Assembly (NCBI GenBank): GCA_965209055.1
Contig: OZ242374.1
Coordinates: 480,001-544,000, forward strand
Direction: 5' to 3'
Length of the DNA stretch: 64,000 nt
DNA from: Acidobacteriota bacterium
Lineage (GTDB): Bacteria > Acidobacteriota > UBA6911 > RPQK01 > JAJDTT01
The notes under the pieces: generated by a model
Told to the model about the DNA's origin: nothing
The model's input: the letters and a program-made list of their open reading frames with translations, nothing else
Databases searched by the model: none
In this document: positions 4,335 to 64,000 of the stretch, one piece after another
How positions within the stretch are numbered: the stretch's first letter is position 1
Layout: each line of letters starts with the position of its first letter
Made by a program: the position numbers and the translations under genes

Positions 4335-4589
4335 AACCGAGCCCATCTGCTCGTGTAAACGATTCGGGCCGCGTAAGCGGCTGGATCGGCCCGCCTGAAT
4401 CCAAGAATGGAGCCGCGAAGCGGGGAAGAGCGTGTCGGCTTTCAGGCGCAGGATGATTCTGCTGCCTGTTTGTTGCCTGTTCAGCACGTCAAACATTCGA
4501 AGTCAACCACTTTACCGATTCGGCGAAGAACCCGGTAACATATTGAACACGTTAATGTTCGGTAGTCTTTGACTGAGGGACAGTTGGGA

Positions 4590-44926: not shown

Positions 44927-44930
44927 GGGA

Positions 44931-45920: not shown

Positions 45921-45950
45921 CTTGGACCCCCAGTCGATGAGAACCGGCCG

Positions 45951-47342: not shown

Positions 47343-47422
47343 TGCTCCCTCCCCAAATGCAGTCGAGTCACTCCACCAGGATCCGTCGCCGGGCGCCGCG
47401 TGGAACTCGCGCCCCCATCAAC

Positions 47423-48967: not shown

Positions 48968-51145
48968 CTACCCCGAAGCCCCTTCCATGGCAACGGGGCG
49001 CATCACGGGGACTTCGACAATCATTTCGGTGAACTCGCCGGGTTCGGTTTCCACTCGAATGGATCCTCCATGCTCCCGCACGATGTCGTTGGAGAGAGCA
49101 AGGCCCAGACCCGTTCCCTGGTCGGTGGGTTTCGTGGTAAAGAACGGATTGAAGATCTTTTCTACGATCTCAGGCGGAATTCCGTTCCCATTGTCCTTGA
49201 TTCGGACCTCGATCCGGTCTTCGAGACGCCGGGTGGCGACCCACAGAGTCGGCATGTAGTCGAAAAAGCCTTTCCCCGCCTCGATCGCCGCGCGCCGTTT
49301 CTGATCGGTGGCGTAGCAGGCGTTGCCCACCATGTTCAGAAAAACCCGGCCCATGTCCTGCGGAACGACTTCGAACTGACCGGCCTCCGGGTCCAGACTC
49401 ATCTCCATATGGAGCTGGAAATCGGGATCGGTCGCCCTCGCGCTGTGGTAGGCAAGACGGGTGTGCTCGTCGAGCAGGTTGTTGACGTCCGTCACCTGCC
49501 ATTCGCCCGAGCCACGGCCCATCATAAGCATGTCGTGAACGATCCGGTTGGCCCGTTCGCCGTGCTGGTGGATGCGGCGTAGATTGTCGGTGATGTCCTG
49601 AATCAGCTCCGCGACCAGCTCGCGGTCGTCCTTACTCAGTTTCTCGCCTTCTTCTTCCAGGACTTCCTGGAGTTCCTCCAGGAGTTCCTGCGACGCCTCC
49701 GCGAAGTTCTTAACGAAGTTCAAAGGATTCTTGATCTCATGGGCAACGCCCGCGGTGAGCTCACCGAGCGCCGCCAGCTTTTCACGCATGACGATCTGGT
49801 CCTGAGCTTTCCGCAAGTCGGCGAGGACGCTCTCCAACTGTTCGTTCTTACCCCGCAATTCCTCTGCCAGCTTCTCCACCAGGTTCAGACGCTGGACCTC
49901 CAGCGCGTGGCGCCGAAACACCTCCAGGGCGGCGGCCATGTCGGCCACCTCGTCCCTTCCTTCGATCTCGACCTTGCCCTCCAGTTCTCCCCCGGCCATT
50001 CGCCGCATGCGCTGCGACAACAGCGCCAGGCGGCGCAGCAGTATCCGTCCCACGATCAGCCAGGCGATGAGCACGGCGCCGACGATGCTGAGCCCGTTGA
50101 TGGCGACGAGGAGGACTCGGCCCGCCAGAATGGCTTGTGTGGATTCTTGAGTGTCGGCTGCCGCTCTCGCCTGAGACGCTTTCACCAACTCGTCGACGGC
50201 CGCCACCAGGTCAATGGCGATTCCGCGGTTCTCCGCCAAGAGGTCTCTCTGCCGCGCGGTCAGTCTCAATTGGCGGACCAGCAGATTGAGGCAGCCCTCC
50301 TCTCCGGCGCCCAACTCGAAAAGAAGTTGGAAGTCGGCGGAGATCTGCCCAAGCAATTCGGACTCTCCCAGCGACGACAGGCTCCTTTCGATGCGATTGC
50401 GAGACGCCTCGAACTTGTCTCGCAAAGGCTCGATCAGGAAGGCGTCCGAAACCGTGAAAGCACTGTCCAGAAGTTGCGTGGCGGTATTGGCGTCCGCCAG
50501 CAGATCGGTCAAGTGACGAAAGCGATCGAACTGATCTTCCGAGAAATGTTTCCAACGAGGAGCCGGAGGCTCCCCCAAGGTTCGGTGTCCCGTGATGGTG
50601 TAAAAGAATTGGTCATCCACGGTCGGGAAGATGACCCGCTGCAGGCGTCCTTGCAGATCCGCGAGTTCGGTGCGCAGAGCCGAACTCCGCTCGGCCAATT
50701 CGTAAATCGCCGACATGTCGGTTTCGATGGCCTCGATGTTCGATCTCAAGGTATCGGCGTGAGCGCGAATGCGCCGGAAACGTTCGTCGGCCGCATCCTG
50801 GCGCTCCAAAACGGCCAACTGCTCCTCGAGCGCCGTTTTCGACTCGTTGATGCTTGCCGCAACCTGGGCGAAGTCGTCGGTCGTTTCGGCGGTGGTCAGC
50901 CGAGGCGCAGCCGCGACCAGGGCGGCGCTGTACTGCGCCACACCGAACGCGGCCTCCAATTCCGGGAACCGAAGTTCATTGACCCGCCGCTGCAGATCGC
51001 CCACGCGGTCAAAGGAAAACCAGCCCACGAGACTCGCGGCGATCGTCAGGGCGACGGCGCCTCCGATGGTGACGTAGAGCTGCGTCGAGATCCGAAAGCG
51101 ACTCTGCAGCAGACTACCGAGCAAGCGGTTCAGTCGTTCGATCAC
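48968..51145 (-). CDS. membrane sensor histidine kinase (TorS-like periplasmic domain, HAMP, HisKA, HATPase)
   Basis: Two TM helices, GRDEVADMA HAMP, AGVAHEIKNPL H-box, DNGNGI, FFTTKP..GTGLGL. Confidence 0.93.
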   Translation of the reverse strand: MIERLNRLLGSLLQSRFRISTQLYVTIGGAVALTIAASLVGWFSFDRVGDLQRRVNELRFPELEAAFGVAQYSAALVAAAPRLTTAETTDDFAQVAASINESKTALEEQLAVLERQDAADERFRRIRAHADTLRSNIEAIETDMSAIYELAERSSALRTELADLQGRLQRVIFPTVDDQFFYTITGHRTLGEPPAPRWKHFSEDQFDRFRHLTDLLADANTATQLLDSAFTVSDAFLIEPLRDKFEASRNRIERSLSSLGESELLGQISADFQLLFELGAGEEGCLNLLVRQLRLTARQRDLLAENRGIAIDLVAAVDELVKASQARAAADTQESTQAILAGRVLLVAINGLSIVGAVLIAWLIVGRILLRRLALLSQRMRRMAGGELEGKVEIEGRDEVADMAAALEVFRRHALEVQRLNLVEKLAEELRGKNEQLESVLADLRKAQDQIVMREKLAALGELTAGVAHEIKNPLNFVKNFAEASQELLEELQEVLEEEGEKLSKDDRELVAELIQDITDNLRRIHQHGERANRIVHDMLMMGRGSGEWQVTDVNNLLDEHTRLAYHSARATDPDFQLHMEMSLDPEAGQFEVVPQDMGRVFLNMVGNACYATDQKRRAAIEAGKGFFDYMPTLWVATRRLEDRIEVRIKDNGNGIPPEIVEKIFNPFFTTKPTDQGTGLGLALSNDIVREHGGSIRVETEPGEFTEMIVEVPVMRPVAMEGASG

Positions 51146-52326
51146 GGCGCCGCTTCCAGCATTGAGCTGATGGGACGATATTGACCGTCACGACCGATTA
51201 CGGTCAGATAAACGGCATCCGATCCCTGGTTGTCCTGGTCGCCGAAACGAAGCCGGAACCCACCGAGGTCCATCATTCCGGCTTGGCGAAAACCGTCCAG
51301 AAAACCGGCTCGACTAATCTCACCCCCGGACTGCTTCAGGCCGGCAATGGCCAGGCGCCCGGCCAGATAGCCTTCGAAGGAGATGAACCCGGGAACCACG
51401 CCGGATGCGTAGGCAGCAAGGGCGCGATTGTAGTCGCGGACGATGGAACGCGATTTGTCGGTCGGGAAGGGCACGACCTGAGTGACGTAAACACCGGCGC
51501 CGGCGGAGCCGAGCTCCTTCGCCAACGCGTTGCTGCCGACGAAGGAGATGTTCATGAATACGGCTTGGAGGCCCGAAAACCGGGCCCAGGAAATGAATGT
51601 GGCGAGAGGTTTGTACGCGCCGATGAGAATCACGGCTTTGGGGTCCCCGTCGTTGATGTCCAGGAGAGCCATCTTTACCGCCAGGGTATTGCGAGGGTAA
51701 AGGCCGATGGCCACCGGCGTCATATTCCGTCGATCGAGCGCGGCCCGAACCCCACGGTATCCGGCCCGGCCGAAGGAATCGTCCTGGAACAATACGGCGA
51801 TCCGCTTGATTCCCATGTCCTCGGTCAACCTGGCTACCATTTCTTCGGTCTCCTGGTTGTAGGAGGCCCGAAGGTTGATGACGTTGCTCCACTCGGCGGC
51901 GCGCAGGAACTCGGCACCCGTGAAGGGGGCGATATACGGCACGCTGGCGTCCGCGGCAACCGGTACGGCCGCGCGTGAGGTGGGTGTGCCGACTGCGCCG
52001 ATGAGAGCGAAGACCTCTTGTTCCCTGATCAGAGTGACGGTATTGGCAACGGCGGCCTCCGGTTCGTAGGCATCGTCCAGCGACGTCAACTCCAGCCGAC
52101 GGCCATCGATGCCGCCCGCCCGGTTGACCTCGTGGAAGGCGGCCTGGATGCCGAGACGCATGCTGATACCCAACTCCTGGGCAGGACCGCTGAAAGCGGC
52201 GGACTGTCCGAAGAGAATGCGGTCGTCGGAAACGCCGGGTTCCTGCGCCGGAACCGGCAATGCTGTCAGCAACCATGCGGCCACCAAAATGAGGACGCCG
52301 GCCGGCCGGCCGGACCATCGCTTCAC
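51142..52326 (-). CDS. periplasmic binding protein (LivJ/branched-chain type), probable ligand receptor for the kinase
   Basis: Signal peptide; GQSAAFSGPA, GGIDGR, LDDAYEP, GTPT, RASY..E; GTGA overlaps on both sides; no permease or ATPase nearby. Confidence 0.88.
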   Translation of the reverse strand: MKRWSGRPAGVLILVAAWLLTALPVPAQEPGVSDDRILFGQSAAFSGPAQELGISMRLGIQAAFHEVNRAGGIDGRRLELTSLDDAYEPEAAVANTVTLIREQEVFALIGAVGTPTSRAAVPVAADASVPYIAPFTGAEFLRAAEWSNVINLRASYNQETEEMVARLTEDMGIKRIAVLFQDDSFGRAGYRGVRAALDRRNMTPVAIGLYPRNTLAVKMALLDINDGDPKAVILIGAYKPLATFISWARFSGLQAVFMNISFVGSNALAKELGSAGAGVYVTQVVPFPTDKSRSIVRDYNRALAAYASGVVPGFISFEGYLAGRLAIAGLKQSGGEISRAGFLDGFRQAGMMDLGGFRLRFGDQDNQGSDAVYLTVIGRDGQYRPISSMLEAAP

Positions 52327-52742
52327 CGGACCCGCTCCTTGACCAGAGTCACGTGGTTTCTCCCCCCCTGACGCCGATAGCGCAAGTTGTCCACCAGGCT
52401 GCGTACGATATGGATCCCGAGGCCGCCGATGGTGCGTTCCCCTAATTCCACATCCAGATCGGGCTCGGGAGCCTCGCTGGTCGGATCGAACGGATGGCCG
52501 TTGTCCACGATTTCGACGGTGAGGGACTCACCTTCCGCGGTCAGCGTGATCTCGATCTTCTCGAGGTTCTTGGTCTTCCCGTGGGTCATGATGTTGAGTC
52601 CCAGCTCTTCGATCACCAGGTTGATTTGAAAGATCATGTCGGACGGCCATTTTTCCGCGTCGCCGAACTGCTCCACAGCGGCCGTAATCACACTCAGTTC
52701 CTCAACTCTGGGGTCGATTTCCAGGGACAGCTTTCGGCTCAA
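52323..52742 (-). CDS. anti-sigma factor / Ser kinase, RsbW-like (copy 2)
   Basis: LVIEELGLNI..HG, IVDNG.PFDP, GGLGIHIVRSLVD...Y.R.GGRN. Confidence 0.9.
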   Translation of the reverse strand: MSRKLSLEIDPRVEELSVITAAVEQFGDAEKWPSDMIFQINLVIEELGLNIMTHGKTKNLEKIEITLTAEGESLTVEIVDNGHPFDPTSEAPEPDLDVELGERTIGGLGIHIVRSLVDNLRYRRQGGRNHVTLVKERVR

Positions 52743-52909
52743 CGACGCCTCTCGCTCAGACTGGACCTCATAAGGGAGACGACGGGCGACTGCGCCTTGT
52801 CACCGGCGTTATTCCCGTCCGCTCCGAATTTGGCTGGTCATCGGGCATGCCCCGACAGCGCGGCACAGCAGACTCGACCGGCATCCACTCCGGTCTCCAC
52901 GCCGGGATC

Positions 52910-53248
52910 CTATCCGCCATGCTTGGCGACGGCTTCGGACCGGGAGGCATGAGTGGGGATGATTCTGCTGAAACCACTGATCTCAAACACCTCGTTGATG
53001 GTATCGGTGAGCGAGCACACAACGAGCTTTCCACCTCGTCCCTGCAGCTTCTTGGCAATCATCAGAAAAGCTCGAAGGCCGGCACTGCTGATGTAGGAAA
53101 GATCTTGTAAGTCCATGATCAGGAGACGATCGTCCTCCCCGATTGCCTCGTGGAGCGCCTCCTCGAATTCGCGGGCATTGGTGCCGTCGACACGGCCCTC
53201 CGCTCGGGTGATCAAGATCCCTCCTTCCCGCTCGGCGTGAACCTCCAT
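52910..53248 (-). CDS. anti-sigma factor antagonist (STAS), RsbV-like
   Basis: GRVDGTNAREF, DLQDLSYISSAGLR (phospho-Ser motif), VFEISGF. Confidence 0.92.
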   Translation of the reverse strand: MEVHAEREGGILITRAEGRVDGTNAREFEEALHEAIGEDDRLLIMDLQDLSYISSAGLRAFLMIAKKLQGRGGKLVVCSLTDTINEVFEISGFSRIIPTHASRSEAVAKHGG

Positions 53249-53484
53249 TGCTCTGACTCCCGGATATTGTGACCTAATCCTTCCGACAATTTGCCGCGAT
53301 ATTACCACCGGTGGACCTTCAAGCGAAACCACCACGCCACGGTCGGCAGATGGTTTTCGTTGCCGGGAAATGGTACGGAAGGCTGAATGCCACTGATGAG
53401 GCCGACTCCTTTTCCCGCTTGAGGACGCCCGAGCCGGCGATTTGAGCGGCGCGGCTGCCTGATGCCGAGGGAACCCGGCGACCC

Positions 53485-54735
53485 TCAAAAATTGTAAATC
53501 AAGGCCAATTCGACGAAGCTGTCGCGCCGAGTCAAATAGGTGAGATCCACTTCCTGGATACCCCGAAAGGCGATCGACTCCAGACGCAGAGACCACTGAT
53601 CCGAGATGCGCCGGTTCAATTCCAGAGTCAGCACCTGTCCTGAACTGTCGGCGTCTCGCAGAATGCTGGCGAGAAGCTCGGTGCTCTGAACGTCGTTGAA
53701 GGCTATCCTCGCGGCCAGGAAAAAATCATTCTGGAAGATGTTGGTGGCATATTGGCGCCGGTCGTCGTAGTTCCATTCGCTGAGCAGCGTAAGATCCAAC
53801 GCCGAGCCGGATACGGAATAGAACGTGTACTCGCCGCCAAACGTGGAAGCCGAGTAGTCTTCTTCCACGCCGAGAAGGTTTTGGGCGCCGGTTCGCCGAA
53901 TCGCCTCGAGCTTGAACAGCCAGGACCCGGCCGTCACCTGGGCGTCCAGCCCGAACTGCCGGATCTGCTCGTAGTATGGGACCAAGGCCGGTTCTCCGGA
54001 GAGGCCCGGATCCAGAGTCAGAAAGGGATCTCGACTGGTGCCGTCGAAAACGCTCATGCCCAGGTCGAGAGGCCCGAAACTGCGACTGTAGCGGCCGGCT
54101 AAATCCAGATGCCACTGCTTGGCGTCGCTCTCATAGGAAATCATGTCGTTGTCCACAACAAACGGAAGTCGCAGACGGCCGAAGCGGCCTGGAAAGGTGC
54201 GGCCACGGTGATACGTCAGGCCGAAGACTTCCGCCGTTCCCCAATCGCCGGAAAAAGTAAGGTGGGCCATGGGTTGGCCCAGCTTGGGTTCCTTGTAGGG
54301 ATGTTCCACCAGGTCGATCTGGTTGACGATGTTGACCAGGTGGCGGGATTCGGTGACTCCCCAGAACACCCGGTCCACCCCTAGACGGAGCTCCCATTCG
54401 CTATTCGCGACGTCGCCGAACAGCAGAAGGTAGGCTTCACGCAGATCGACATGGGTTCGGCTCGGGTCCCCGGCGTCGTAACGAAAAAACGGCGCCAGAT
54501 TGAAGCTCCGGCCTCCATGGTCTTCGAGATAGAATTCGGGCTCGATGGCCAGACCGCTTGCGTGTGAACGCTGGCCGGGGTACGCCGCACTTTGGGGATG
54601 CCACCGGCTTTCAAGGCTCACGCGCCCCGAAGTCTCGTGCCTGACGATCTCGGCCCGGAGTCCGCCAATACAGACTGGGATGAGAAGCCCCGCAGTGCAG
54701 AATCGCGCGCACCGAATGACGAGACGGCGGGGCAT
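53485..54735 (-). CDS. putative outer-membrane beta-barrel protein
   Basis: Signal peptide; DLREAY, VFWGVTES..L...NQ.D, terminal LIYNF; TAATG coupling to the LolA-like gene. Confidence 0.8.
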   Translation of the reverse strand: MPRRLVIRCARFCTAGLLIPVCIGGLRAEIVRHETSGRVSLESRWHPQSAAYPGQRSHASGLAIEPEFYLEDHGGRSFNLAPFFRYDAGDPSRTHVDLREAYLLLFGDVANSEWELRLGVDRVFWGVTESRHLVNIVNQIDLVEHPYKEPKLGQPMAHLTFSGDWGTAEVFGLTYHRGRTFPGRFGRLRLPFVVDNDMISYESDAKQWHLDLAGRYSRSFGPLDLGMSVFDGTSRDPFLTLDPGLSGEPALVPYYEQIRQFGLDAQVTAGSWLFKLEAIRRTGAQNLLGVEEDYSASTFGGEYTFYSVSGSALDLTLLSEWNYDDRRQYATNIFQNDFFLAARIAFNDVQSTELLASILRDADSSGQVLTLELNRRISDQWSLRLESIAFRGIQEVDLTYLTRRDSFVELALIYNF

Positions 54736-55559
54736 TAACGAATCCGTTGCAGCCCGGTGCGGGTGAAGTCGCGATCGTTGAGCTTGGTCCGGAATTCATA
54801 TTCCGTCCATGTCAGAACGGTGCTTTTCCCGGTGAGATGATTCACCATCGTCATCTCGCCCGCCTGCCAGTAGCGATCCAGGTACTGCCGGTAGTTCCTC
54901 AAGGTGAGGGTCTTCAGGTGCGAATCCTTGCGATCGTAGTATTCCACCTTCCAAACGCGAAACGCGTCTTTGTCCTGCCAGACCAACTGCCTGCGGTAAC
55001 CCGATTTCTTGTCCACAGGGACGCGCTCGGAGACGGTGCACGTCAACTCGCCGCAAGGCTCGTCCCGCAGGTATCGGTAGCTGAATCTCTCCACTTCCTG
55101 CGCGCTCATGTCCTCATAGGCGAACTCGCTGCCCATGAAGGAGCCGGAGCGGTTCGACGAACTGATCCGTTTCACCCGCTTCAGCGCCGGGAGATAGAGC
55201 CACTGGTCGTCCGCCTTGTCGCGATGGGCGTGGATCAGGAAAGCCGTTCCCTTGACGTCCCGCGGCTCATCGAAGACGAACATGCTCTTGTCTCCGTCTC
55301 CGGGCACTTCGAGCACCCTGACCCGGAGTTGGCGCCGACTCTCCTTCCCCTGCTTGTTCCGCAACACCATGGTCTGTTGAGCCGTAAAATTGCCGAATCC
55401 GTCTCCCTGCTCCCGCGCTTCGAGCGCAATCTTCAGGCCGATTTCTTCGGGGGAAGCGTCGTCGGAACGGGCGAACGCCGGCGAAGCCAGACAGGCCATG
55501 ACGACGACGGCAGGAACCACATGCGCGAGGGGAGACCGGACGGAACAAGAGTAAATCAT
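54735..55559 (-). CDS. outer-membrane lipoprotein-sorting (LolA-like) periplasmic protein
   Basis: F.EPRDVKGTAFL, DDQWLYLPALKRVKRI, SFMGSEFAYED, EYYDRK...LKTL, M.NH.TGKST; ATGA overlap with the MMPL gene. Confidence 0.9.
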   Translation of the reverse strand: MIYSCSVRSPLAHVVPAVVVMACLASPAFARSDDASPEEIGLKIALEAREQGDGFGNFTAQQTMVLRNKQGKESRRQLRVRVLEVPGDGDKSMFVFDEPRDVKGTAFLIHAHRDKADDQWLYLPALKRVKRISSSNRSGSFMGSEFAYEDMSAQEVERFSYRYLRDEPCGELTCTVSERVPVDKKSGYRRQLVWQDKDAFRVWKVEYYDRKDSHLKTLTLRNYRQYLDRYWQAGEMTMVNHLTGKSTVLTWTEYEFRTKLNDRDFTRTGLQRIR

Positions 55560-57859
55560 GATTTTCTCCGATCGAGGGCCATCAACAGAGGCGGCAGCAG
55601 AAAGAAATCGGCGAGAAGCGCGAACACTATGGTGATCGTGACCATGAGTCCGAGCGACCGGCTGACCTCGAATCCCGATGAAGCGAACACCAGGAAGCCG
55701 GCCGACAAGACCGCAGTCGTGGTCCACAGAGCCTTTCCGACAGTGTTGAATGTGGAACGCACGGCCGCGGCCGCATCCAGGCCCTGGCGGCGCCCCTTCA
55801 GATACTTGGTCAGGAAATGAATCGTGTCGTCTACGACGATACCGAACGCAATCGCGGTCATCACGGAACCGGCCAGACCCAGATTGCCCACCAGATAGCC
55901 CCAGAATCCGAAGCTCATTGCCGCAGGAATGAAGTTGGGAATCAGACTGATGAGTCCGTGGCGCACGCTCCGGAATATCAGGACCAGGATGAACGAGACG
56001 ATGGCCATGGCAATGATCGTCCCCCGCAGCATGCTTTCGATGTTTCGAAGAGAAAGGTGGGCAAAGACCACACTGAGGCCCGTGGCCGGCACGACTCGAT
56101 GGGGCAGGTTGGCGCGGAGCCAATCTTGAGCGCGAGCGTCCAACTCGCGCAGGCCCCGCGACGAAGAGTCACGGACCGTCACCGTCATGCGGGTCTCGGA
56201 CTTGGCGATGTCGATCCGGTTGTTCAGGTCATTGCCGAAGGGAAGCGACAGCTCGTAGACCAACAGGTATTGGGCCGCGAGTTCGGGGTCGTCCGGCAAC
56301 CGATAGTAACCGGGGTCGTCGCCGTGCATGTTCTTGTTCAGGCGTTTCATGATGTCCGGGAACGCCTGGACATGGGTCACTTCGGGTTGCGTGCGGTACC
56401 ATTCGGCGAATTTCTCGACGGCGCCCAGATATTCGGGATCGGTGATGCCGCCTTCCCGTCCCGCTTTCAGCGAATACTCCAGCGTATCCAAGCCGGTCAG
56501 GTTTTCGATGACGAAATCCGTATCGCGCCGGAACTGGTAGCGCTCGTCGAAATACTTGGGCCAATTGTCGCTCAACTGGTTGCGGGGGATGCCCATGACG
56601 AGGCCTATGGCGATGAGGGGAACGAACCAGAGCAGAAATCTGCGCTTGGCCACGACAAAGGCGCCGAAGCGTTCGAAGAAGAGAGTCTTTTCAGGGAGCA
56701 GCCGGCGCGCGCGCAGCGGCAGGATCGAAAGCACCGCCGGCAGAAGCAACATGGAATAAACGAAAGCACAAGAAACACCGAACGCCACCAGATTGCCCAG
56801 GACGCGAAACGGAGGCGAGTCCGAAGCGTTCAGGCTGAGAAAGCCGATCACCGTTGTGAGAGTCGTCAGAAATACGGGATAAGCATTGGTCCGCACGGAT
56901 GCCGCGATCGCGGCGTTCCTGCTCAAACCGCGGCTCATGCCCAGCAAGGTGCTGGTGACGATGTGAATTGAATCCGCAACGGCGACCGCCATCACGATAA
57001 TGGGTACCCCGGCATTGGTCGGACTCATCACGGTTCCGAGCCAGCCCGCCAACCCCATTGTCGTGTTGACGATGAATACGAGCAGGACCGAGATGGACAG
57101 GGTGGCAAGAAACGAGCGCAGAAGAATCGCGGCGGAGGCCGCGATCACCAGAAAAACGATGGGAACCAGGATCTGAAGATCGTCCTGTGTGGCTTCGGCG
57201 AAGGCGCGGTGCATGACGACATCGCCGGTCAGGAAATAGGCGATTTCAGGATGCCGTCCGCGAGCCTCTTCCAGAGCGGCGTTGAGATAGTCGGTGATCT
57301 CCGCCACCGCGGCGTCCGGATCTTCGGGCAGGACGAAATTGATGGTCAAGCCGCCGACGCGGCCGTCGGTGGAGACCAGGCGCCCGGCGATCTCGGAAGC
57401 ATTCAGCGCAATCGTCCGGATTCGGGCCAGGTCGGCATCGTTCAGAGACTGTGCGTCATCGACCAGCGGCTCGACCACCAGATCGTCCTCGACCGCTTCG
57501 CTATGGGAATAGTTGGTGAGGGAATCGACCCGTGTGGAATAGGGGGCGCCCCAGGCAGCTTCGGTCAGTTCCTCGATCGCCCCAAGCGCCTCGAGCGTGA
57601 ATACGGAACCCGCCCCGGGCGCAATGGCGATCAATGCCCTGTTGGATGCGGCATACGTGTTCTCCAGGGCATCGAATGCGGCGAGTTGAGGATTGTCTTC
57701 GTCGAACAGAATTCGGTAGTCGTTCGTGGTGGTGATGTACCGGGCACCTGCCGTCATGACCAGCATGACCACTGTCGCAACCACCAACACCGTCCAGCGG
57801 TGGTTCAGGACAACAGCAATGTAGCGGTCCAAGAAGGGCGACGTCATACCTTCGTTCAC
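55556..57859 (-). CDS. MMPL/RND family lipid exporter
   Basis: Twofold symmetric TM protein; AVADSIH...TTLTTVIGFLS and GIVVDDTIHF...TTAVL..GF motifs. Confidence 0.93.
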   Translation of the reverse strand: MNEGMTSPFLDRYIAVVLNHRWTVLVVATVVMLVMTAGARYITTTNDYRILFDEDNPQLAAFDALENTYAASNRALIAIAPGAGSVFTLEALGAIEELTEAAWGAPYSTRVDSLTNYSHSEAVEDDLVVEPLVDDAQSLNDADLARIRTIALNASEIAGRLVSTDGRVGGLTINFVLPEDPDAAVAEITDYLNAALEEARGRHPEIAYFLTGDVVMHRAFAEATQDDLQILVPIVFLVIAASAAILLRSFLATLSISVLLVFIVNTTMGLAGWLGTVMSPTNAGVPIIVMAVAVADSIHIVTSTLLGMSRGLSRNAAIAASVRTNAYPVFLTTLTTVIGFLSLNASDSPPFRVLGNLVAFGVSCAFVYSMLLLPAVLSILPLRARRLLPEKTLFFERFGAFVVAKRRFLLWFVPLIAIGLVMGIPRNQLSDNWPKYFDERYQFRRDTDFVIENLTGLDTLEYSLKAGREGGITDPEYLGAVEKFAEWYRTQPEVTHVQAFPDIMKRLNKNMHGDDPGYYRLPDDPELAAQYLLVYELSLPFGNDLNNRIDIAKSETRMTVTVRDSSSRGLRELDARAQDWLRANLPHRVVPATGLSVVFAHLSLRNIESMLRGTIIAMAIVSFILVLIFRSVRHGLISLIPNFIPAAMSFGFWGYLVGNLGLAGSVMTAIAFGIVVDDTIHFLTKYLKGRRQGLDAAAAVRSTFNTVGKALWTTTAVLSAGFLVFASSGFEVSRSLGLMVTITIVFALLADFFLLPPLLMALDRRKS

Positions 57860-59028
57860 CAGGGACTCGATTTCGACGCCCGAACGTGGTCAGGCATCTT
57901 GTAACTCATCGCGCCCAACACGGCCTCGTCGTAGACCGAGATTTCGAGCATCTGGCAAAAATTCTCCGACCTGATCAACTGCTGGCTCTTGAGCAGATGC
58001 TGAAAACGTTGTTTCAACCGGTAAGCGAACAGCACACCCAAGGTATTCGACTTTGGAAACTGCAACTGGTCGGCAAGCCTGTTTCCGATCAGGGAGCGTG
58101 ACAGCCGGTAGGCCAGGTCCTTCACGGCGACCTGTTCCTCCGGGTCTTCGATTCCCGCCGTCAGGGGAATCGCCTCTACCAGCGCGTTGGCCATGGTGGC
58201 CGAATCACTGTCCGGGGTCGGCTCGCACATGTGGGCTACATCGAATATTTCGCGCGCGTGGCTTTCACTGGAAAAGAGGATGGACTCGGGCACCCCCATG
58301 ACGTACCCGGCGTATCGCCAGACTTGCAGCACACTCTCTCGCTCCTCCCCGGAATACCTGGCCCCCACGGAAATCGAATGCTGGAGCAGGCGCATGGAAA
58401 AGACGGTGGTGGCGAAACCCAGGTGCGCCGCGCTGATCGGCGTACCCCAAGCATCGGCATCCCAAGCGTCGGAATTCGCCAACAGGTGCCTCACTCGGGC
58501 GTGAACGAAGCGAAGGCGCATGGAGAGCTTCCAACCATCTCCATCCCTCCGCAGACCTCCGGGGAAAAACACCTCCAGCAGATGGCGGTTGTTCTGCATC
58601 AGGCGCCTTCTCGCGGTCAAGGGGCTCAAGACGCGTCCCGTCGTGGCGAAAGACTTGGCGATCAGCGTCGCAAATCCCTCGATCAGCACGCCCGTGACAA
58701 AGGCGACGAGGATTTTCGTCGTGTTCAGGTGAAAGGCCCGGACGCCGGGACGAAAAGCTTCGTAGTCGAACCAGGGGGGATCTTCCAGATTCTCGAAAAA
58801 ACCGCGCAGTGACTGCGGCGCGGCGCGAAGACCCTCTTCGTCCTGGTCGATCCCGGCTCGGATGAATCGATGCAATACGTGGGGCGGCAACGAGGAGACC
58901 TCGTCCATCACCGGATCGAGCGCGGGGTCGCCGACGGTCGTGTGCCGGATATAGCTGTCGGCAAGCGTCTGGTCGTAGCGCCGGGCCTCCCGGTAGCCCT
59001 CGACATACGCCGAGGGGGATTGCAGCAT
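57856..59028 (-). CDS. MpaB/Lcp (latex-clearing protein, DUF2236)-like heme oxygenase
   Basis: GDPAL, PPW.D, TGR.....ARRRL, GWK.SMRLRFVHARVR (family R..H motif with heme His), WGTPI, WRYAGYVMGV. Confidence 0.85.
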   Translation of the reverse strand: MLQSPSAYVEGYREARRYDQTLADSYIRHTTVGDPALDPVMDEVSSLPPHVLHRFIRAGIDQDEEGLRAAPQSLRGFFENLEDPPWFDYEAFRPGVRAFHLNTTKILVAFVTGVLIEGFATLIAKSFATTGRVLSPLTARRRLMQNNRHLLEVFFPGGLRRDGDGWKLSMRLRFVHARVRHLLANSDAWDADAWGTPISAAHLGFATTVFSMRLLQHSISVGARYSGEERESVLQVWRYAGYVMGVPESILFSSESHAREIFDVAHMCEPTPDSDSATMANALVEAIPLTAGIEDPEEQVAVKDLAYRLSRSLIGNRLADQLQFPKSNTLGVLFAYRLKQRFQHLLKSQQLIRSENFCQMLEISVYDEAVLGAMSYKMPDHVRASKSSPW

Positions 59029-59152
59029 TCGTCGATCTCCTGACAGTCTGCCTGACTGATGGACAGCAGCGGATCTTCAGGACGCTCCGTCCGGAGAACT
59101 GTCCCGGTCGAAGGCCATTCCAGATTCGACGGTGAATCTCCAGGCCCGATCA

Positions 59153-59170
59153 ATGCGCCGCGCGTGCCAG
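59153..59170 (-). promoter_or_regulatory. candidate sigma54 promoter for the oxygenase-export operon
   Basis: Minus strand CTGGCACGCGCGGCGCAT = TGGCACG -24 element with GG-N10-GC spacing, ~125 bp upstream of the start at 59028. Confidence 0.4.
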
Positions 59171-59419
59171 CCAATCACATGCGGATGCGCCGAAAGTGCC
59201 CGCCGTAAAGGGTTTTATGCTCGATCCAATTCCCTGGACCGAGTCAGCAACAAATCATAGCACACAGTAACGACCCCCCTCCCATTTTCAGGAAGGCCGC
59301 TGCCGGATCAAATATCCCGGCCGCAGGATTGATCAACCGGCGGTTTCCGGCCCCATGCACGTTGTCGCATTCCGGTCATTGATCCAGAGTCCGGGAGTCT
59401 GATCGAACCCGTCAACCGG

Positions 59420-60697
59420 CTACGGGCGCTCCGCACCAGGCGTCCCGGATCCCGCTATGACGCGAGCCGCCATCTGACCGGAACGAACTGCGCTCTCGAT
59501 GGTTGCGGGCAGACCCGTGTCGATCCAATCCCCGGCCAGAAACAGGTTGGCGAACTCGCTTCCGGTCGAGGGACGGCGCCTCACCTGGCCGGGCGTCTGC
59601 GCGAACGTGGCGCGCTTTTCCTTGACGACGCGGCAGCGGGGTATCCTTTCGCGCTCCTGGCCCAACGCCGCCGCAACGTCGTTCCAACTCCTGCGGGCAA
59701 TGACTTCTGCCGGCTCGCCTGCCAGTGCGTCCGCTGCGCTGACGGTGACGGAAGCCACGTCGCCGCGAATGAAGAGCCACTGCGCGGTTCCCCCGATCAG
59801 TCCGAGGAGAGGAAGCTCCGGCGGCATTCCGGCCGGTTTGGACAACCGGAAATGAGCGTTGACGATGGCGTGGGTTTCGCCGGGGACGGACAACCCCGGC
59901 ACCAGCTCCGCCGCAGCCAGAGGAGGAACAGCCAGTACCACGGACCCGCCTTCCCGCAATCGTATTCTTTCGGAGCCGAAGTCCAGACCGTTCGCGCGGC
60001 GGCCCCGGTAGCTGATCCTGCGTAATCGGCGGCCGAACCGAACCGTCGCGCCCCTTTGGTGAAGGAACTTCAGGGCCGGGTCCACGAAGGCGGCGGAGAG
60101 TCCTGTCTTGGCGATCCGCGGCCGGCAGGCCGCCTCCCCTCGGGCGAATGTCTCACGCAAAACGGACCACAGGAGCCTCGCCGCCCCGGATCGAGCCGGC
60201 GTATTCAATGCACCGACCGCCAGCGGTTTCCAGAATCTCTCGAAGAGAACGCCGGTTCCTCCGACGCAGTCGGTCACGGTCGCGTCGGCACCCGCCGTGA
60301 CGAACCGCAGCGCCGAAAAGTAATTCCAGACCCTTGTGTCCGGCACCCGCCGCCCGGACTTCAGGATCCACCACGGGAGTCGTCCGGCATTCGGCCGCAG
60401 CAGCCACCTTTGACCCGTGCGCAAATCCAGGAACGGAAAGCAGGCGGAAGCCGGGCCGATCAGAAAGTCGGCGGCCTCGATGTCAGCCAGGTAGCGCATC
60501 GCGGCGCGGTTGCCGCTCAGCAGCAGATGGTTGCCGTTGTCTATCGTGCGCTCAAGCTTGGCATCGGCGTAGGAGCGGCAGCGGCCTCCCGCATGGCCGC
60601 CCGCTTCGTAGAGCGTCACGTCCCGGCCTCGCCGCACCAGCGACACCGCGGTGGCGAGACCCGCCAAACCGGCGCCGATGACGTGGGTTCGGGGCAC
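59420..60697 (-). CDS. hpnE: hydroxysqualene dehydroxylase (FAD-dependent)
   Basis: VIGAGLAGL, GGRCRSY, IDNGNHLLLSGN, EKRATF, LAGDW..TGLPATIE.A; follows hpnC-hpnD. Confidence 0.92.
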   Translation of the reverse strand: MPRTHVIGAGLAGLATAVSLVRRGRDVTLYEAGGHAGGRCRSYADAKLERTIDNGNHLLLSGNRAAMRYLADIEAADFLIGPASACFPFLDLRTGQRWLLRPNAGRLPWWILKSGRRVPDTRVWNYFSALRFVTAGADATVTDCVGGTGVLFERFWKPLAVGALNTPARSGAARLLWSVLRETFARGEAACRPRIAKTGLSAAFVDPALKFLHQRGATVRFGRRLRRISYRGRRANGLDFGSERIRLREGGSVVLAVPPLAAAELVPGLSVPGETHAIVNAHFRLSKPAGMPPELPLLGLIGGTAQWLFIRGDVASVTVSAADALAGEPAEVIARRSWNDVAAALGQERERIPRCRVVKEKRATFAQTPGQVRRRPSTGSEFANLFLAGDWIDTGLPATIESAVRSGQMAARVIAGSGTPGAERP

Positions 60698-60709
60698 GGT
60701 GAAACTCCG

Positions 60710-61642
60710 TCAGCACAGACCGTAACGCAGAGCGAGCAGCAGCTTCCGGAACCGCGTCAGCCGGATGCCGACGTCGAGCCGCGTCCATCCCCGCTCTTCC
60801 AGGCGATCGAGCAATTCCCGGTACACCGCCATCATGAGAACGGCAGGGCGAATCCTCCGCCATCCGAATTCGGCGATGAGTCTTTCGGTTTCGGCGTAGT
60901 AACCTCGAGCGAGACCGGCCAGTTCGGCGCAGGCTGCGCTAAAGCCTGGATGACTCAGGGTTGCGTTCAACGACGTGGCGGCGACGCCGTGCTTGCTCAG
61001 CAACTCCTGTGGCACGTAGAGCCGATGCAACGCCGCATCCGCCTTCAGGTCACGAAGGATATTCGTCAGTTGCAAAGCGTTCCCCAGCGTCTCGGCGATT
61101 TGAAATCCGGGGTTGCGCGGCACGCCGAAAGCATGGATGGACAGCCTGCCGACAGCTCCCGCGACCTTGCGGCAATAGTGCAACAAATCATCCAGGTCCT
61201 GCATCCGCACGGTGGGCCCGGCATCGATTTCCATACCCTCGATCACCGCCAGGAATTCCTCTTGCGGCAAGTTGTAACGGCGCACCGGTTTCAACAGTGC
61301 CCTCGTGGTCGGCCAATTCGGCTCCCCCGCATAGAGCCGGTCAATCTCTTGCCTCCATGCCGCCAGCGCTCGCCTCTTGTCGGCGTCTTCGCCCGGTTCG
61401 TCGGCAATGTCGTCGACTTCCCGGCAGAACGCATAGATGGCGTAGATTGCACGGCGCCGCTCCGCCGAAAGCGCTCTCATGCCCCACAGGAACGACGTGC
61501 CCGAACGCGCTACGACACGATTCACGTGATCCGCGGGATTGATCCGACCGCCGGGCCGGCTTCCCGGTCCGGCTTGCGATCGAGATACCGTCCTCACGTT
61601 GTCAGCCTTCCCGCGGCGGAAACCTTCATGTCGCACAACCAC
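60710..61642 (-). CDS. hpnD: presqualene diphosphate synthase
   Basis: SGTSF..GM, YAFCREVDDIAD, YC..VAGAVG, LG.ALQLTNILRD, RLYVP; start uncertain. Confidence 0.9.
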   Translation of the reverse strand: MVVRHEGFRRGKADNVRTVSRSQAGPGSRPGGRINPADHVNRVVARSGTSFLWGMRALSAERRRAIYAIYAFCREVDDIADEPGEDADKRRALAAWRQEIDRLYAGEPNWPTTRALLKPVRRYNLPQEEFLAVIEGMEIDAGPTVRMQDLDDLLHYCRKVAGAVGRLSIHAFGVPRNPGFQIAETLGNALQLTNILRDLKADAALHRLYVPQELLSKHGVAATSLNATLSHPGFSAACAELAGLARGYYAETERLIAEFGWRRIRPAVLMMAVYRELLDRLEERGWTRLDVGIRLTRFRKLLLALRYGLC

Positions 61643-61690
61643 TGCGACGTCGGCCCTCCAGCCCGCGTTTCTTCATCGGAAACACGACGA

Positions 61691-62578
61691 TCATGTTACT
61701 TGTTCGGCTTCGGTGCGCCGACGCCGGACCCTCACGAGCAAGGTCCGGCCGATTCCACGCCAAAAGCAGGCCGCGTACTGAACCTTGGTCAGCACGACCC
61801 GTTCGGCCAAAGGGTCCCGCCGGCGCAACTCCCTGCTGAGCTTCCGGGCGATGGCTACGATCACGGCCGTTTCCATGGCGAAACGAAGGTTGCGAAACCG
61901 GTCCGGCAGGCGATCCGCCGACTCCAACAACGTCTCGGTTGCATCGAGGCACCGATTCAATACTCGCCTGAGCGCCGGAGTCGAACGCCTGCGTCCCAGC
62001 ACCTCGACACCGGCCCCGGCCGCCGCCATCCAGTTCTGAGGAAGATAGACCCGGTTCAACGAACGGTAGTCAGGTCCGCAGTCCTGCAGGTGGTTGAGCA
62101 CCTGGAGCGCGTTGCAAAGGGCGTCGCAGGCGGGATACGCGGCCTTCGATTCGCCATGAAGGTCGACCAGGTAGCGCCCCACGGGCGCCGCCGAAAGATC
62201 ACAGTAACCGATGAGATCGTTCCAGTCGGCATACCGCAGTTTGGTCGCGTCCTGAATGAAGGCGCGCGTCAGATCGACACAATGCCGATGGGTGACCTGC
62301 GTGATCTCCAGACTGCGGCGGACGGCGTGAGCTTTGCCAAAAGCCGGATCACCTGTTTCGGCGCCCCTCACCGCTCTGGCGAAGCCGTCCAGTCGTTCGA
62401 TCTTGTCTCCCGGATCCAGGTCGGGGTTGTCGGCAATATCGTCGATCGCCCGGGCATAGGCATAGAAGGTTGCAATATGAGGTCTCAGGTGCGCCGGCAG
62501 CAACCAGGAGCCGACGGGGAAGTTCTCATCCGCCGCAGCTTTGCCGGACGGCGTCTCCATGGCAGCGGCCCTGTCCAT
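61691..62578 (-). CDS. hpnC: hydroxysqualene synthase
   Basis: ENFPVGS, Y..ARAIDDIAD, AF.QD..K.RY..W..L..YC..SA.PVGR, ALQVLNHLQD, RVYLP. Confidence 0.92.
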   Translation of the reverse strand: MDRAAAMETPSGKAAADENFPVGSWLLPAHLRPHIATFYAYARAIDDIADNPDLDPGDKIERLDGFARAVRGAETGDPAFGKAHAVRRSLEITQVTHRHCVDLTRAFIQDATKLRYADWNDLIGYCDLSAAPVGRYLVDLHGESKAAYPACDALCNALQVLNHLQDCGPDYRSLNRVYLPQNWMAAAGAGVEVLGRRRSTPALRRVLNRCLDATETLLESADRLPDRFRNLRFAMETAVIVAIARKLSRELRRRDPLAERVVLTKVQYAACFWRGIGRTLLVRVRRRRTEAEQVT

Positions 62579-62757
62579 CGCGAACCCATAGGCGACCGAT
62601 CAGATCGCTCGCGTGTTTGACAGCACCGGGGGTTGGGAGCCTGGAACTGCCAACGTCAGGCTATGGCGAAAGTTGCCGTCCCTACCAACCGCCGCGCCGG
62701 CGTGGCGCGCTTGGAGCCGGGAGGAGTTGGAGCGCGCCGCCATGGCGGATCCCGGCG

Positions 62758-63177
62758 TCACTCGGCCAACTCTTTGACCAGGGTCAGGTAGTTTCTACCT
62801 CCGTCGCGGCGATAGTGCATCTCGTCCATCATGGTGCGCACCAGGTAGACACCCAGACCGCCCACGGCACGGTCTGCGACTCCGGAGTCCAGATCGGGCG
62901 AGGGCGCATCCTCCAACGGATCGAAGGGAAGGCCATTGTCCACGATCTCGATGGTGAGCGTTCCCGGTTCCGAGGTCAAAGTGATCTCGATCTCATGGAG
63001 ATCGTCGGTCCTGCCATGGTTGATGATGTTGAGTCCCAACTCCTCGAGCACCAGATTGACTCGAAAGACGAGTTGCGGGGGCCATTTCTCGGCGTCGCCG
63101 AATTCTTCCACGGCGGCTGTGATCGTATCCAATTCTTCGGCCCTGGGTTCAACCTTCAGGGCCAGCTTCCGGCTCAA
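62758..63177 (-). CDS. anti-sigma factor / Ser kinase, RsbW-like (copy 1)
   Basis: LVLEELGLNI..HG, IVDNG.PFDP, GGLGVYLVR; TTGA overlap with the PP2C stop. Confidence 0.9.
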   Translation of the reverse strand: MSRKLALKVEPRAEELDTITAAVEEFGDAEKWPPQLVFRVNLVLEELGLNIINHGRTDDLHEIEITLTSEPGTLTIEIVDNGLPFDPLEDAPSPDLDSGVADRAVGGLGVYLVRTMMDEMHYRRDGGRNYLTLVKELAE

Positions 63178-64000
63178 CGATCGCTCTCCCTTCGATAGAG
63201 CACCATGCAGGTGATGTCGTCCGATTGAGGAGTATCCCCGACGAAGTCCCTGACCGCCTCGAAGACCGCGTTGTTGGCCTCCTCGGAATCTTTCGGGGGC
63301 CCATCCGCAAAGATCTCGAACAGACGTTCCGTACCGAACTCTTCGCCGTCGTCGTCCATGGCCTCGGTGACGCCGTCGGTGTAGAAAATCACGGTGTCTC
63401 CGGGTGAAAGGACCACGGTGTTTTCGTGGAAATCGAGGTCGGGAATCACGCCCAGGGCGATCCCATGAGTGAGAGGAAGCAGAGAGGAGCGTCCGTCGGC
63501 ATGGACGACCAGCGGGGAGTTGTGTCCGCCGTTGGCGTAGGTCAGTTCTCCGCTGGCCGGATTGTACACCGCGTACAGGAGGGTGACGAACATGGCGGCG
63601 TCGTTGTCCTCGTCAAGCAGGTTATTGACCTCCCCCAGGACCCGGCCCGGATCCAGAGTTCCGATGGCGGCGCCCTTGAGCAGAGTCCGGCTGGACATCA
63701 TGAAGAGCGCGGCAGGCACTCCCTTGTCCGAAACGTCCGCAATGGCCAGGCCGACCCGGCCTTCGTGGAGGTAGATGACATCGTAAAAATCTCCGCCCAC
63801 ATTGCGAGCCGCCTCCATGCTGGCGGACACTTCGTAGTCGGTGCCCTTGGGGAACTGACTGGGAAGGATGGATTGCTGCATCTGGTTGGCGACATTGAGT
63901 TCGTTCTGCAACGCGACCAGCTTGTCCCGCGAAGCCAGGGCCTCGCGCCACTCCATCATGTGCTGGACCGTCCGGTCGATGGTGATTCGAAGGTCTTTGA
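63174..64000 (-). CDS. PP2C/SpoIIE (RsbU-like) phosphatase, probably with N-terminal receiver domain; 5' end outside window
   Basis: VGGDFYD, IADVSDKGVPAALFM, MFVT, NGGH, YTDGVTEA, DDIT; frame stays open to the window end (KDLRITIDRT resembles the last receiver helix). Confidence 0.92.
   Translation of the reverse strand, partial: KDLRITIDRTVQHMMEWREALASRDKLVALQNELNVANQMQQSILPSQFPKGTDYEVSASMEAARNVGGDFYDVIYLHEGRVGLAIADVSDKGVPAALFMMSSRTLLKGAAIGTLDPGRVLGEVNNLLDEDNDAAMFVTLLYAVYNPASGELTYANGGHNSPLVVHADGRSSLLPLTHGIALGVIPDLDFHENTVVLSPGDTVIFYTDGVTEAMDDDGEEFGTERLFEIFADGPPKDSEEANNAVFEAVRDFVGDTPQSDDITCMVLYRRESDR

Follow-up and report, generated by a model that had tools for sequence, protein, structure and literature searches.

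Squalene genes and an oxygenase-transporter cassette set within a partner-switch signalling locus of an Acidobacteriota bacterium

The stretch of DNA analysed here, 64,000 nucleotides long (the window), belongs to an Acidobacteriota bacterium (GenBank assembly GCA_965209055.1, contig OZ242374.1, positions 480,001 to 544,000). From position 48968 to its end, and for a short way beyond, it holds a locus in which the squalene genes hpnCDE and a four-gene cassette are enclosed by signalling genes. The cassette encodes a haem oxygenase, a pump of the resistance-nodulation-division (RND) class, a LolA-like periplasmic protein and an outer-membrane beta-barrel, and the signalling genes encode a membrane histidine kinase (HK), a periplasmic binding protein (PBP) and a partner switch composed of a PP2C phosphatase with a receiver domain (REC-PP2C), STAS proteins and RsbW-like kinases. 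The genes belong to recognisable families, cassette and signalling genes recur as neighbours in several phyla, and the cassette is mobile. We tentatively read the locus as a composite of hpnCDE, an oxidise-and-export operon and a signalling operon that would control it, a joint reading to which slightly less than an even chance is given. A functional link of the signalling genes and the lipid cassette is supported, because their co-location recurs, in rearranged form, in six or more lineages.

According to this reading, HpnCDE would turn farnesyl diphosphate into squalene, and the oxygenase, acting in the cytoplasm, would oxidise squalene or a similar polyprenoid, probably by C=C cleavage as in its Lcp and MpaB' relatives. 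The product would then be carried through both membranes and the periplasm between them by the pump, which is probably of HAE3 type, the LolA-like carrier and the barrel. On the signalling side, the LivJ-type PBP would load a small ligand and dock on the TorS-type sensor of the kinase, and we infer that the kinase feeds the REC-PP2C by setting its phosphorylation state. The REC-PP2C would dephosphorylate the STAS proteins, which could then sequester the RsbW-like kinases and free a target, and by this route the switch would regulate the cassette. The mobile cassette would repeatedly have come to sit beside a resident signalling set, and its place between two copies of a STAS-(PP2C)-RsbW triad would fit integration or exchange by homologous recombination in the repeats.

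Gene order and encoded proteins

Coordinates are window positions (the window genome has the handle G000, and the window is G000:C1:480001-544000). The features of the locus are as follows.

Window-equivalent 64537-64968, beyond the window end, minus: STAS1; STAS 69.3 bits (Pfam); 172 nt upstream of REC-PP2C
63174..64000, minus, gene running on to window-equivalent 64364: REC-PP2C phosphatase, 396 aa; Response_reg 87 bits, SpoIIE 185.9 bits (Pfam)
62758..63177, minus: RsbW1, RsbW-like serine kinase of anti-sigma type; HATPase_c_2 92.4 bits; 4-nt overlap with the PP2C stop codon
61691..62578, minus: HpnC, the squalene synthase in the bacterial three-step route; SQS_PSY; TIGR03464 270.8 bits, cut-off 250.45
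60710..61642, minus: HpnD, presqualene diphosphate synthase; SQS_PSY; TIGR03465 312.6 bits, cut-off 278.6; start codon approximate
59420..60697, minus: HpnE, hydroxysqualene dehydroxylase, a flavoprotein of the amine-oxidase family; TIGR03467 389.3 bits, cut-off 283.05
59029..59419, minus: hpnE-oxygenase gap, 391 nt; TGCTATGAT -10-like box at ~59253-59262, then a leader of ~225 nt
57856..59028, minus: haem oxygenase of the MpaB/Lcp (DUF2236) family; PF09995 MPAB_Lcp_cat 68.6 bits, cut-off 23
55556..57859, minus: RND transporter of MMPL, putatively HAE3, type with a sterol-sensing-domain-like region; MMPL 97.3 bits, Sterol-sensing 27 bits (Pfam)
54735..55559, minus: LolA-like periplasmic protein with signal peptide, 274 aa; PF17131 206.8 bits; its ATG overlaps the pump stop codon
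53485..54735, minus: outer-membrane beta-barrel, DUF1302-like, 416 aa; DUF1302 26.7 bits, cut-off 23.2 (weak)
52910..53248, minus: STAS2, anti-anti-sigma-type protein; STAS 75.1 bits (Pfam)
52323..52742, minus: RsbW2, RsbW-like; HATPase_c_2; overlaps the PBP start codon (GTGA)
51142..52326, minus: PBP, periplasmic LivJ-type binding protein with Sec signal peptide; Peripla_BP_6 187.8 bits
48968..51145, minus: HK, membrane histidine kinase; TM1 (first membrane segment), periplasmic sensor ~44-335, TM2, HAMP, HisKA, HATPase_c

The full order is STAS1 - REC-PP2C - RsbW1 - [hpnCDE] - [oxygenase-pump-LolA-barrel] - STAS2 - RsbW2 - PBP - HK. Every long open reading frame (ORF) of 48968-64000 that matched a family in the Pfam scan lies on the minus strand, so the single-strand order given by the original prediction, which was made from the letters alone, is confirmed for each gene it named. 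The GTGA overlaps that it had described are likewise present in the sequence, both between rsbW2 and the PBP gene and between the PBP and HK genes. Its suggestion that the phosphatase was probably a REC-PP2C proved correct once the contig was extended past 64000, where the receiver domain was found and an extra STAS gene was revealed. The reported lack of an ABC permease or ATPase nearby also holds, as no ABC transporter family occurs among the 33 ORFs scanned with Pfam from window position 42337 to ~79400. The synteny check which it had proposed gave a positive result: the order is the same in five other genomes of the genus (G001-G005) and is kept, with variation, in another family, and therefore is not due to chance. 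The two flanks resemble each other, with STAS1 and STAS2 being 73% identical and RsbW1 and RsbW2 63% identical; the 167 nt that separate STAS2 from rsbW2 gave no trace of a second PP2C remnant in tblastn.

The cassette genes overlap by 4 nt (oxygenase/MMPL), 4 nt (MMPL/LolA, ATGA) and 1 nt (LolA/barrel), and are by prediction a translationally coupled four-gene operon. The oxygenase matches the rubber oxygenase Lcp (5o1l, E 5e-8), at low identity to it. The proximal haem ligand of Lcp is described as His198, flanked by Arg195 and Arg202 (PMC5522427), and R164 and T168 are near-invariant among Lcps (PMC6311187). In the alignment H176 of the oxygenase falls on His198, R173 and R180 on the two arginines and R142 on R164, so that it resembles Lcp and the fungal MpaB' (PF09995) in the family domain, the proximal histidine with flanking arginines and R164. 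The residues R142, Q145, N146, R173, H176 and R180 are invariant in 68/68 orthologues; at the N-terminus P5 and Y8 are invariant too. Inspection of the N-terminus gave no signal peptide; as the N-terminus is also conserved, the oxygenase is taken to act in the cytoplasm, and it forms a branch of its own within PF09995, probably a cytoplasmic one.

For the pump, the best NCBIfam match is HAE3 TIGR00921, whose cut-off of 351.9 bits is not reached by the score of 164.7. The LolA-like protein matches PDB 3bk5 (E 1.5e-82) and, as a member of the LolA superfamily, reaches 33.1 bits with DUF1329 beside 206.8 with LolA_like in Pfam. The model of the barrel (pLDDT 73) has ~18-20 strands, and its closest folds are the AlgE exporter and Occ porins (TM up to 0.57). 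Its consensus sequence ends in YNF, and its profile found nothing meaningful among PDB sequences.

All three equivalog models of HpnC, HpnD and HpnE (NCBIfam) are exceeded at their curated cut-offs, and the HpnC and HpnD genes of the locus are the only SQS_PSY genes of the window genome. A search of the genome for squalene-hopene cyclase gave only a partial match of 26.8-29.6 bits (profile positions 211-315) in an ORF of 403 aa. Squalene therefore has no other evident fate in this genome, with no further SQS_PSY gene and no convincing cyclase. A hopanoid locus was considered and ruled out, as the cyclase is missing and the pump scores only 74 bits against the HpnN model (TIGR03480, cut-off 751.85).

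The TGCTATGAT box before the oxygenase is present in 5/5 aligned members of the genus, including two that have no intact oxygenase, and is absent in G023, a genome of another family of the same order. The leader of ~225 nt is conserved in the same five members. A structured RNA in this leader is not claimed, since covariation was weak (term +3.14, with 4/59 pairs compensatory among five close relatives). Rfam gave no match in the gap at E 0.1. No box common to the rsbW1-hpnC gap (62579-62757) and the hpnE-oxygenase gap was seen, and each gap has its own conserved blocks. In the genus member G004 the rsbW1-hpnC gap is enlarged by an insert of ~170 nt (L017 4617-4965) with a higher AT content than the sequence around it; the same genome has a short tandem repeat of a ~20-nt motif in the hpnE-oxygenase gap.

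The kinase has two membrane segments around a periplasmic domain of ~290 aa. The profile of this sensor, built from 23 orthologues, matches the TorS sensor 3o1h among PDB sequences (E 1.8e-5, 267/292 profile positions). Likewise, in a fold comparison of its AlphaFold model (pLDDT 88.9) the top six matches are all TorS sensors, TorS-TorT complexes among them, and the best five have TMq of 0.67-0.76 and TMt of 0.79-0.84; TM values with TorS sensor domains are also given as 0.74-0.82. By profile and by model, then, the periplasmic domain has a TorS-like fold, which backs the analogy to TorT/TorS drawn in the original prediction. The description of the kinase as TorS-like fits the sensor only: its cytoplasmic part consists of HAMP-HisKA-HATPase_c, with receiver and HPt domains absent (Pfam), and it reaches 145.5 bits with the NCBIfam TorS model, for which the cut-off is 676.5. 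The residues of its H-, N- and G-boxes are invariant.

In 21/21 loci examined the gene of the PBP either adjoins or overlaps that of the kinase, and by analogy the PBP is proposed as the co-receptor of the kinase, its docking on the sensor being a prediction. The PBP is 56-92% identical in 21 orthologues; across phyla it is 56-70% identical, whereas the kinase sensor is 25-40% identical. Its best PDB match, 4kv7, is an uncharacterised "probable Leu/Ile/Val-binding protein". An ammonium transporter adjoins the signalling set in two phyla, the copies of Opitutales (L156 14802-16187) and of the window (45951-47342) being 72% identical, and an NCS2-family permease that carries ~140 extra aa at its C-terminus adjoins signalling genes in three phyla (L048, L056, L086, L090, L093). 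In view of these transporters, a nitrogen compound is a reasonable guess for the ligand. Of the components of a partner switch, PP2C, the RsbW-type kinase and STAS proteins are present. The STAS proteins carry YISS[AS]G[LM]R without exception (28/28), and the SS of this motif is taken by us to correspond to the phosphorylatable serine of SpoIIAA/RsbV.

Recurrence of cassette and signalling genes across phyla

The spread of the cassette was followed by scanning a single genome of each species for a pattern, together with a pump alignment, which gave 615 confirmed relatives; the best 80 were kept as 78 loci. The kept pumps are 62-87% identical to that of the window, and 62-75% outside its genus. 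The titles of these loci name Acidobacteriota, Latescibacterota, Nitrospirota, Nitrospinota, Alpha- and Gammaproteobacteria, Verrucomicrobiota, Gemmatimonadota and Binatota. The oxygenase-pump-LolA-barrel core is common to at least eight named phyla, and many of the named relatives have record titles from symbiont metagenomes. The pump tree mixes phyla, since it needs 13 changes of label where 7 would be the least possible, a mixing which contamination of bins could inflate. A census of neighbours by tblastn (at least 70% coverage) over the 78 loci gave the following counts.

Oxygenase: 64/78 loci
LolA-like protein: 56/78 loci
Barrel: 53/78 loci
Isoprenoid gene (SQS_PSY, IspH, HpnE): 22/78 loci
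Any signalling gene: 15/78 loci
At least three signalling genes: 13/78 loci
Signalling and isoprenoid genes together: 7/78 loci

In a second census, based on ORF clusters at 82 loci, the commonest neighbours outside the core were the PBP (21), SQS_PSY (19), HK (19) and IspH (17), and REC-PP2C, STAS and RsbW were found 16 times each. These adjacency counts include related genomes and hence are not independent trials.

The placement of the signalling genes varies by lineage, as they may flank the cassette, lie upstream of it, lie downstream on the opposite strand, or stand ~9-20 kb off. The pairing occurs in Acidobacteriota, Nitrospirales, Chromatiales/Porisulfidus, another Gammaproteobacterium, Latescibacterota and Opitutales. 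For example, the signalling genes of Nitrospirales are downstream of the cassette on the opposite strand, those of Latescibacterota and of the Gammaproteobacterium at L157 are upstream, and those of Chromatiales/Porisulfidus are upstream with three STAS genes. In Opitutales the set lies ~9 kb past the fetched locus, has the same Amt neighbour, and encodes a PBP 70% and an HK 60% identical to those of the window. Beyond the 15/78 loci counted above, signalling genes were found just outside the fetched loci in two more lineages, and at L031 a different triad, HAMP-PP2C-RsbW-STAS, stands beside the cassette. A polyprenyl synthase gene adjoins the cassette in the Chromatiales/Porisulfidus loci L075 and L057.

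Within the order of the window genome, G023 has a full STAS-REC-PP2C-RsbW triad on both sides of the cassette, and the two triads are direct repeats with 98% identity, a figure that also holds for the two PP2C copies. In the tree of PBP and HK, G023 is sister to the genus of the window with 100% support, and the lineages stand on long, separate branches. In the pump tree G023 groups with a pump of Latescibacterota, apart from that genus, and the approximately unbiased (AU) test rejects a shared clade of the two sets of pumps (p 0.0075, for a group named post hoc after the first tree). From this conflict it follows that two cassette lineages occupy one signalling locus in sister families. Taken with the mixing of phyla in the pump tree, the long separate branches of the PBP and HK tree imply a mobile cassette that is young compared with the signalling set.

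Variant arrangements were also seen. At six loci of Nitrospinota and unlabelled bins (L034, L035, L039, L085, L088, L096) the order is a Peripla_BP_6 protein of 693 aa, two ABC ATPases, pump, oxygenase and pump, often by a molybdopterin oxidoreductase gene, so proteins of the PBP's family accompany the cassette here too, in this case as a transporter component. A diverged clade of lone pumps from Nitrospirales (L074, L080, L082, L091, L098, L100) has no oxygenase, LolA-like or barrel gene and adjoins genes for cytochrome P450 and Rieske/VanA-type oxygenases.

Weighing of the explanations

A number of observations count against control of an oxidise-and-export operon by the signalling set. The oxygenase has been lost in three of the six genomes of the genus, with all signalling genes intact: only its end fragments are left in G002 and G003, the LolA gene of G003 has an insertion, and in G005 the oxygenase and about the first 550 aa of the pump are gone and the remaining piece of the pump has a stop codon. 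In the same three genomes hpnCDE and all the signalling genes are full-length. In another genus, g149, STAS-REC-PP2C-RsbW-PBP-HK form an unbroken operon with no cassette beside it at 4/4 loci fetched (from four of its nine PBP-holding genomes), and no pump homologue was found in the five genomes searched (E 1e-20), a blank which is meaningful because the same query matched elsewhere. In a sample of 401 genomes of Acidobacteriota, a cassette-type pump and the PBP orthologue occur together in six genomes (two genera), the pump without the PBP orthologue (E 1e-70) in four genomes of four genera, and the PBP orthologue without the pump in nine, all of g149, the full signalling operon being confirmed in four of them. 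Five cassette genomes of other lineages either have no PBP orthologue (three, E 1e-60) or have the PBP more than 500 kb away (two). Among the 78 cassette loci, 63 have no signalling gene within 10 kb and 56 have no isoprenoid gene nearby. The TGCTATGAT box is probably a promoter belonging to the cassette itself, and scans for promoters and terminators gave about as many hits as shuffled sequence (2 against 2.6 and 12 against 13.2). The oxygenase differs from Lcp in having no secretion signal and in the replacement of K167/T168 by the invariant Q145-N146 (K167 to Q, T168 to N) and of the aligned E148 by S, for which reason Lcp-like cleavage chemistry is an analogy only. Lastly, the cascade had been called complete in the original prediction, a word that does not stand: the Pfam scan found no sigma factor in the locus, its extension past 64000 included, nor is any other target present there, and 0/3 matches of the genome to TIGR02980 (SigB/F/G-type sigma factors) reach the cut-off, so that the partner switch is left without an identified output.

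Several of these observations also bear on the claim that the locus forms a make-export-sense loop with a terpenoid autoinducer, in which the exported squalene-derived product would be the ligand of the PBP in the manner of quorum sensing. The idea draws on the interleaving of production, export and sensing genes on one strand, on the recurrence of the pairing in several phyla, on the Peripla_BP_6 proteins beside the cassette in the pbp-abc-abc-pump loci, and on BstB of Methylococcus, described as a terpenoid-binding periplasmic protein (PMC10942540). The names given by depositors to solved relatives of the PBP go beyond Leu/Ile/Val, e.g. amino acid/amide binding protein and extracellular ligand-binding receptor, and some relatives presumably bind aromatic acids. 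The loop is nevertheless improbable. Its sensor set is kept in g149, with a PBP 63-66% identical to that of the window and a pump in 0/5 genomes, and PBP and HK are intact in the three members of the genus that lost the oxygenase, one of which lost most of the pump as well. Sensor and producer genes occur apart in the 401-genome sample. The PBP is far more conserved across phyla than the kinase sensor, its nearest solved relatives are annotated as Leu/Ile/Val-binding, and the transporters of ammonium and nucleobase type by the signalling set hint at a nitrogen compound. Since the modules are independent and the cassette erodes where signalling is kept, a sensor dedicated to the cassette product is argued against. 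In our view an external or host-derived solute is likelier than the exported lipid as the ligand. Of the broader claim that the locus controls the production of the exported lipid or senses it, the linkage of signalling genes and cassette survives (recurrent neighbours, 15/78 loci) and the closed sensing loop does not; relatives with signalling genes and no cassette, which had been named beforehand as contrary evidence, are supplied in part by g149. More speculative still, and quite improbable, is that an oxidatively cleaved squalene derivative (an "apo-squalenoid"), made and exported by the four-gene cassette, serves as a signal between phyla of one host-associated community, with the PBP, kinase and partner switch as its receptor. 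If that were true, signalling-only genomes would be listeners and cassette-only genomes producers, and an inter-phylum terpenoid signalling system would have been spread by gene transfer.

The modules may also stand side by side with no regulation between them, a mobile island having recombined at STAS-PP2C-RsbW repeats or been co-transferred and the switch controlling e.g. nitrogen or stress physiology. We hold this to be unlikely, although each module is found alone, the cassette decays where signalling is kept, direct repeats flank it in G023, its tree mixes phyla, it has its own promoter-like box, and the signalling operon has the same ATP-grasp/Alpha-E or Amt neighbours with or without it. 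The g149 operon, which lies beside ATP-grasp/Alpha-E genes, could be ancestral or derived, as recombination between the triad repeats would regenerate its five genes. In 5/5 of the g149 genomes searched, oxygenase homologues stand no more than 10 kb from an SQS_PSY gene, and in three of these no more than 0.5 kb. Against mere juxtaposition, a fall within 20 kb in a genome of ~5 Mb has a chance below 1% by a rough estimate (not a computed test), and it is seen in at least six lineages with varied order and orientation; moreover, the unrelated HAMP-PP2C triad is also beside the cassette at L031, and two pump lineages sit at the same signalling locus in sister families. The last possibility, that foreign terpenoids are detoxified or taken up and hpnCDE is an incidental neighbour, appears rather improbable. 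It would parallel AmeABCD, which is described as conferring monoterpene tolerance (PMC6394551), and DUF1302/DUF1329 genes are reported to have fitness effects on fatty esters in Pseudomonas putida (10.1101/2020.07.04.188060). The 56/78 cassette loci with no isoprenoid biosynthesis gene nearby, and the P450, Rieske and molybdopterin oxidoreductase genes of the variant loci, would also suit it. However, the neighbours that do recur are biosynthetic (SQS_PSY, IspH, HpnE, polyprenyl synthase), the oxygenase is cytoplasmic by its conserved N-terminus with no signal peptide, and there are no terpene catabolic genes in the window locus.

Relation to known systems and surroundings of the locus

All parts of the locus are of known kinds: HpnCDE, oxygenases of Lcp/MpaB type, Ame-like HAE3 exporters, TorS-type sensing and REC-PP2C switches. 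AmeABCD of Castellaniella defragrans is described as an HAE3 pump with DUF1302 and DUF1329 partners, proposed to export terpenes (PMC6394551). Like it, and like the DUF1302/DUF1329/BNR/RND sets of Pseudomonas, the locus combines an RND pump of probable HAE3 type, a DUF1302-type outer-membrane protein, a LolA-superfamily protein and, as far as those descriptions go, an association with terpenes. Unlike AmeABCD, the locus has another gene order and no ORF for AmeC (COG4447/BNR-like), and none turned up among the 29 families of neighbours, drawn from the 82 loci, for which a representative was scanned. Its barrel is of 416 aa against 605 aa in AmeA and its LolA-like protein of 274 aa against 451 aa in AmeB, its operon includes the Lcp/MpaB-type oxygenase, and its neighbours are biosynthetic rather than catabolic. 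Hopanoid loci with HpnN share the HpnC, HpnD and HpnE equivalogs and have an RND pump whose broad group, HAE3, is probably also that of the pump here; they differ by the squalene-hopene cyclase that the window genome lacks and by the low score of its pump against HpnN, given above. BstABC of Methylococcus capsulatus is described as a set of inner-membrane RND, periplasmic binding and outer-membrane proteins that move sterol outward (PMC10942540), and by that description the likeness is one of concept, that is, outward transport of a triterpenoid across the whole envelope. In the locus the PBP is instead tied to a kinase, and the candidate carrier is LolA-like.

Among signalling systems, TorT/TorS resembles the locus in a binding-protein gene directly upstream of and coupled to the kinase gene, and in a helical sensor of ~290 aa with the TorS fold. 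The kinase of the locus differs from TorS in being non-hybrid and in its output, which is REC-PP2C rather than a DNA-binding regulator, and the family of the PBP (LivJ, Peripla_BP_6) is, we assume, not that of TorT. Partner switches fed by kinases are reportedly RsbK-RsbY-RsbV-RsbW of Bacillus cereus and HptB-HsbR-HsbA of Pseudomonas aeruginosa. By domain content (HK, REC-PP2C, STAS and RsbW-type kinase) RsbK/RsbY and HsbR/HsbA are like the locus, which differs from the RsbK and HptB systems in having no SigB/F-type sigma factor in the locus and none above the cut-off in the genome, in its input through a PBP, and in the presence of STAS and RsbW in two copies each (in G023 the complete triad occurs twice).

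No open-access account was found of the oxygenase-pump-LolA-barrel cassette as a unit or of its tie to the signalling set, and the combination has apparently not been reported before. A survey of sponge-associated genomes reports terpene clusters as the commonest class, and two widespread families of terpene clusters without an assigned function as conserved in Nitrospirota and Latescibacterota (PMC11832590). The cassette, beside which SQS and IspH genes recur, is one candidate for the function of such sponge terpene clusters. If the coupling is real, the locus would offer a tractable PBP-kinase input to a partner switch in Gram-negative bacteria, a case of regulated export of a triterpenoid-derived lipid, and a new reaction for the DUF2236 haem oxygenases.

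Downstream of the kinase, at 44054-48856, lie genes for a circularly permuted ATP-grasp protein, an ammonium transporter, an Alpha-E domain protein and a transglutaminase-like protein (Pfam); the ATP-grasp/Alpha-E pair adjoins the signalling operon in g149 too, but at its other side. Upstream of STAS1, at L006 2047-5482 (window-equivalent 65047-68482), the minus strand carries two long ORFs (508 and 655 aa). They have no Pfam match, are 65-79% identical in G005, where one reference has a stop codon, and are regarded as putative genes only.

The whole locus falls inside an inverted duplication of ~158 kb with ~99% identity (genome 484586-642277 against 172945-1; window 4586-64000 and beyond), one copy of which reaches the start of the contig. 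Over the 16 kb of the locus the two copies differ by 97 substitutions and one gap, and all ORFs are intact in both. The duplication may be real or may represent two strains joined in assembly, and it may explain the contamination figure of 7.4%. The word depth of the contig about doubles at its boundary, from 10 to ~20 and from 26 to ~46, and an element of ~140 bp with very high depth lies at window 4461-4600.

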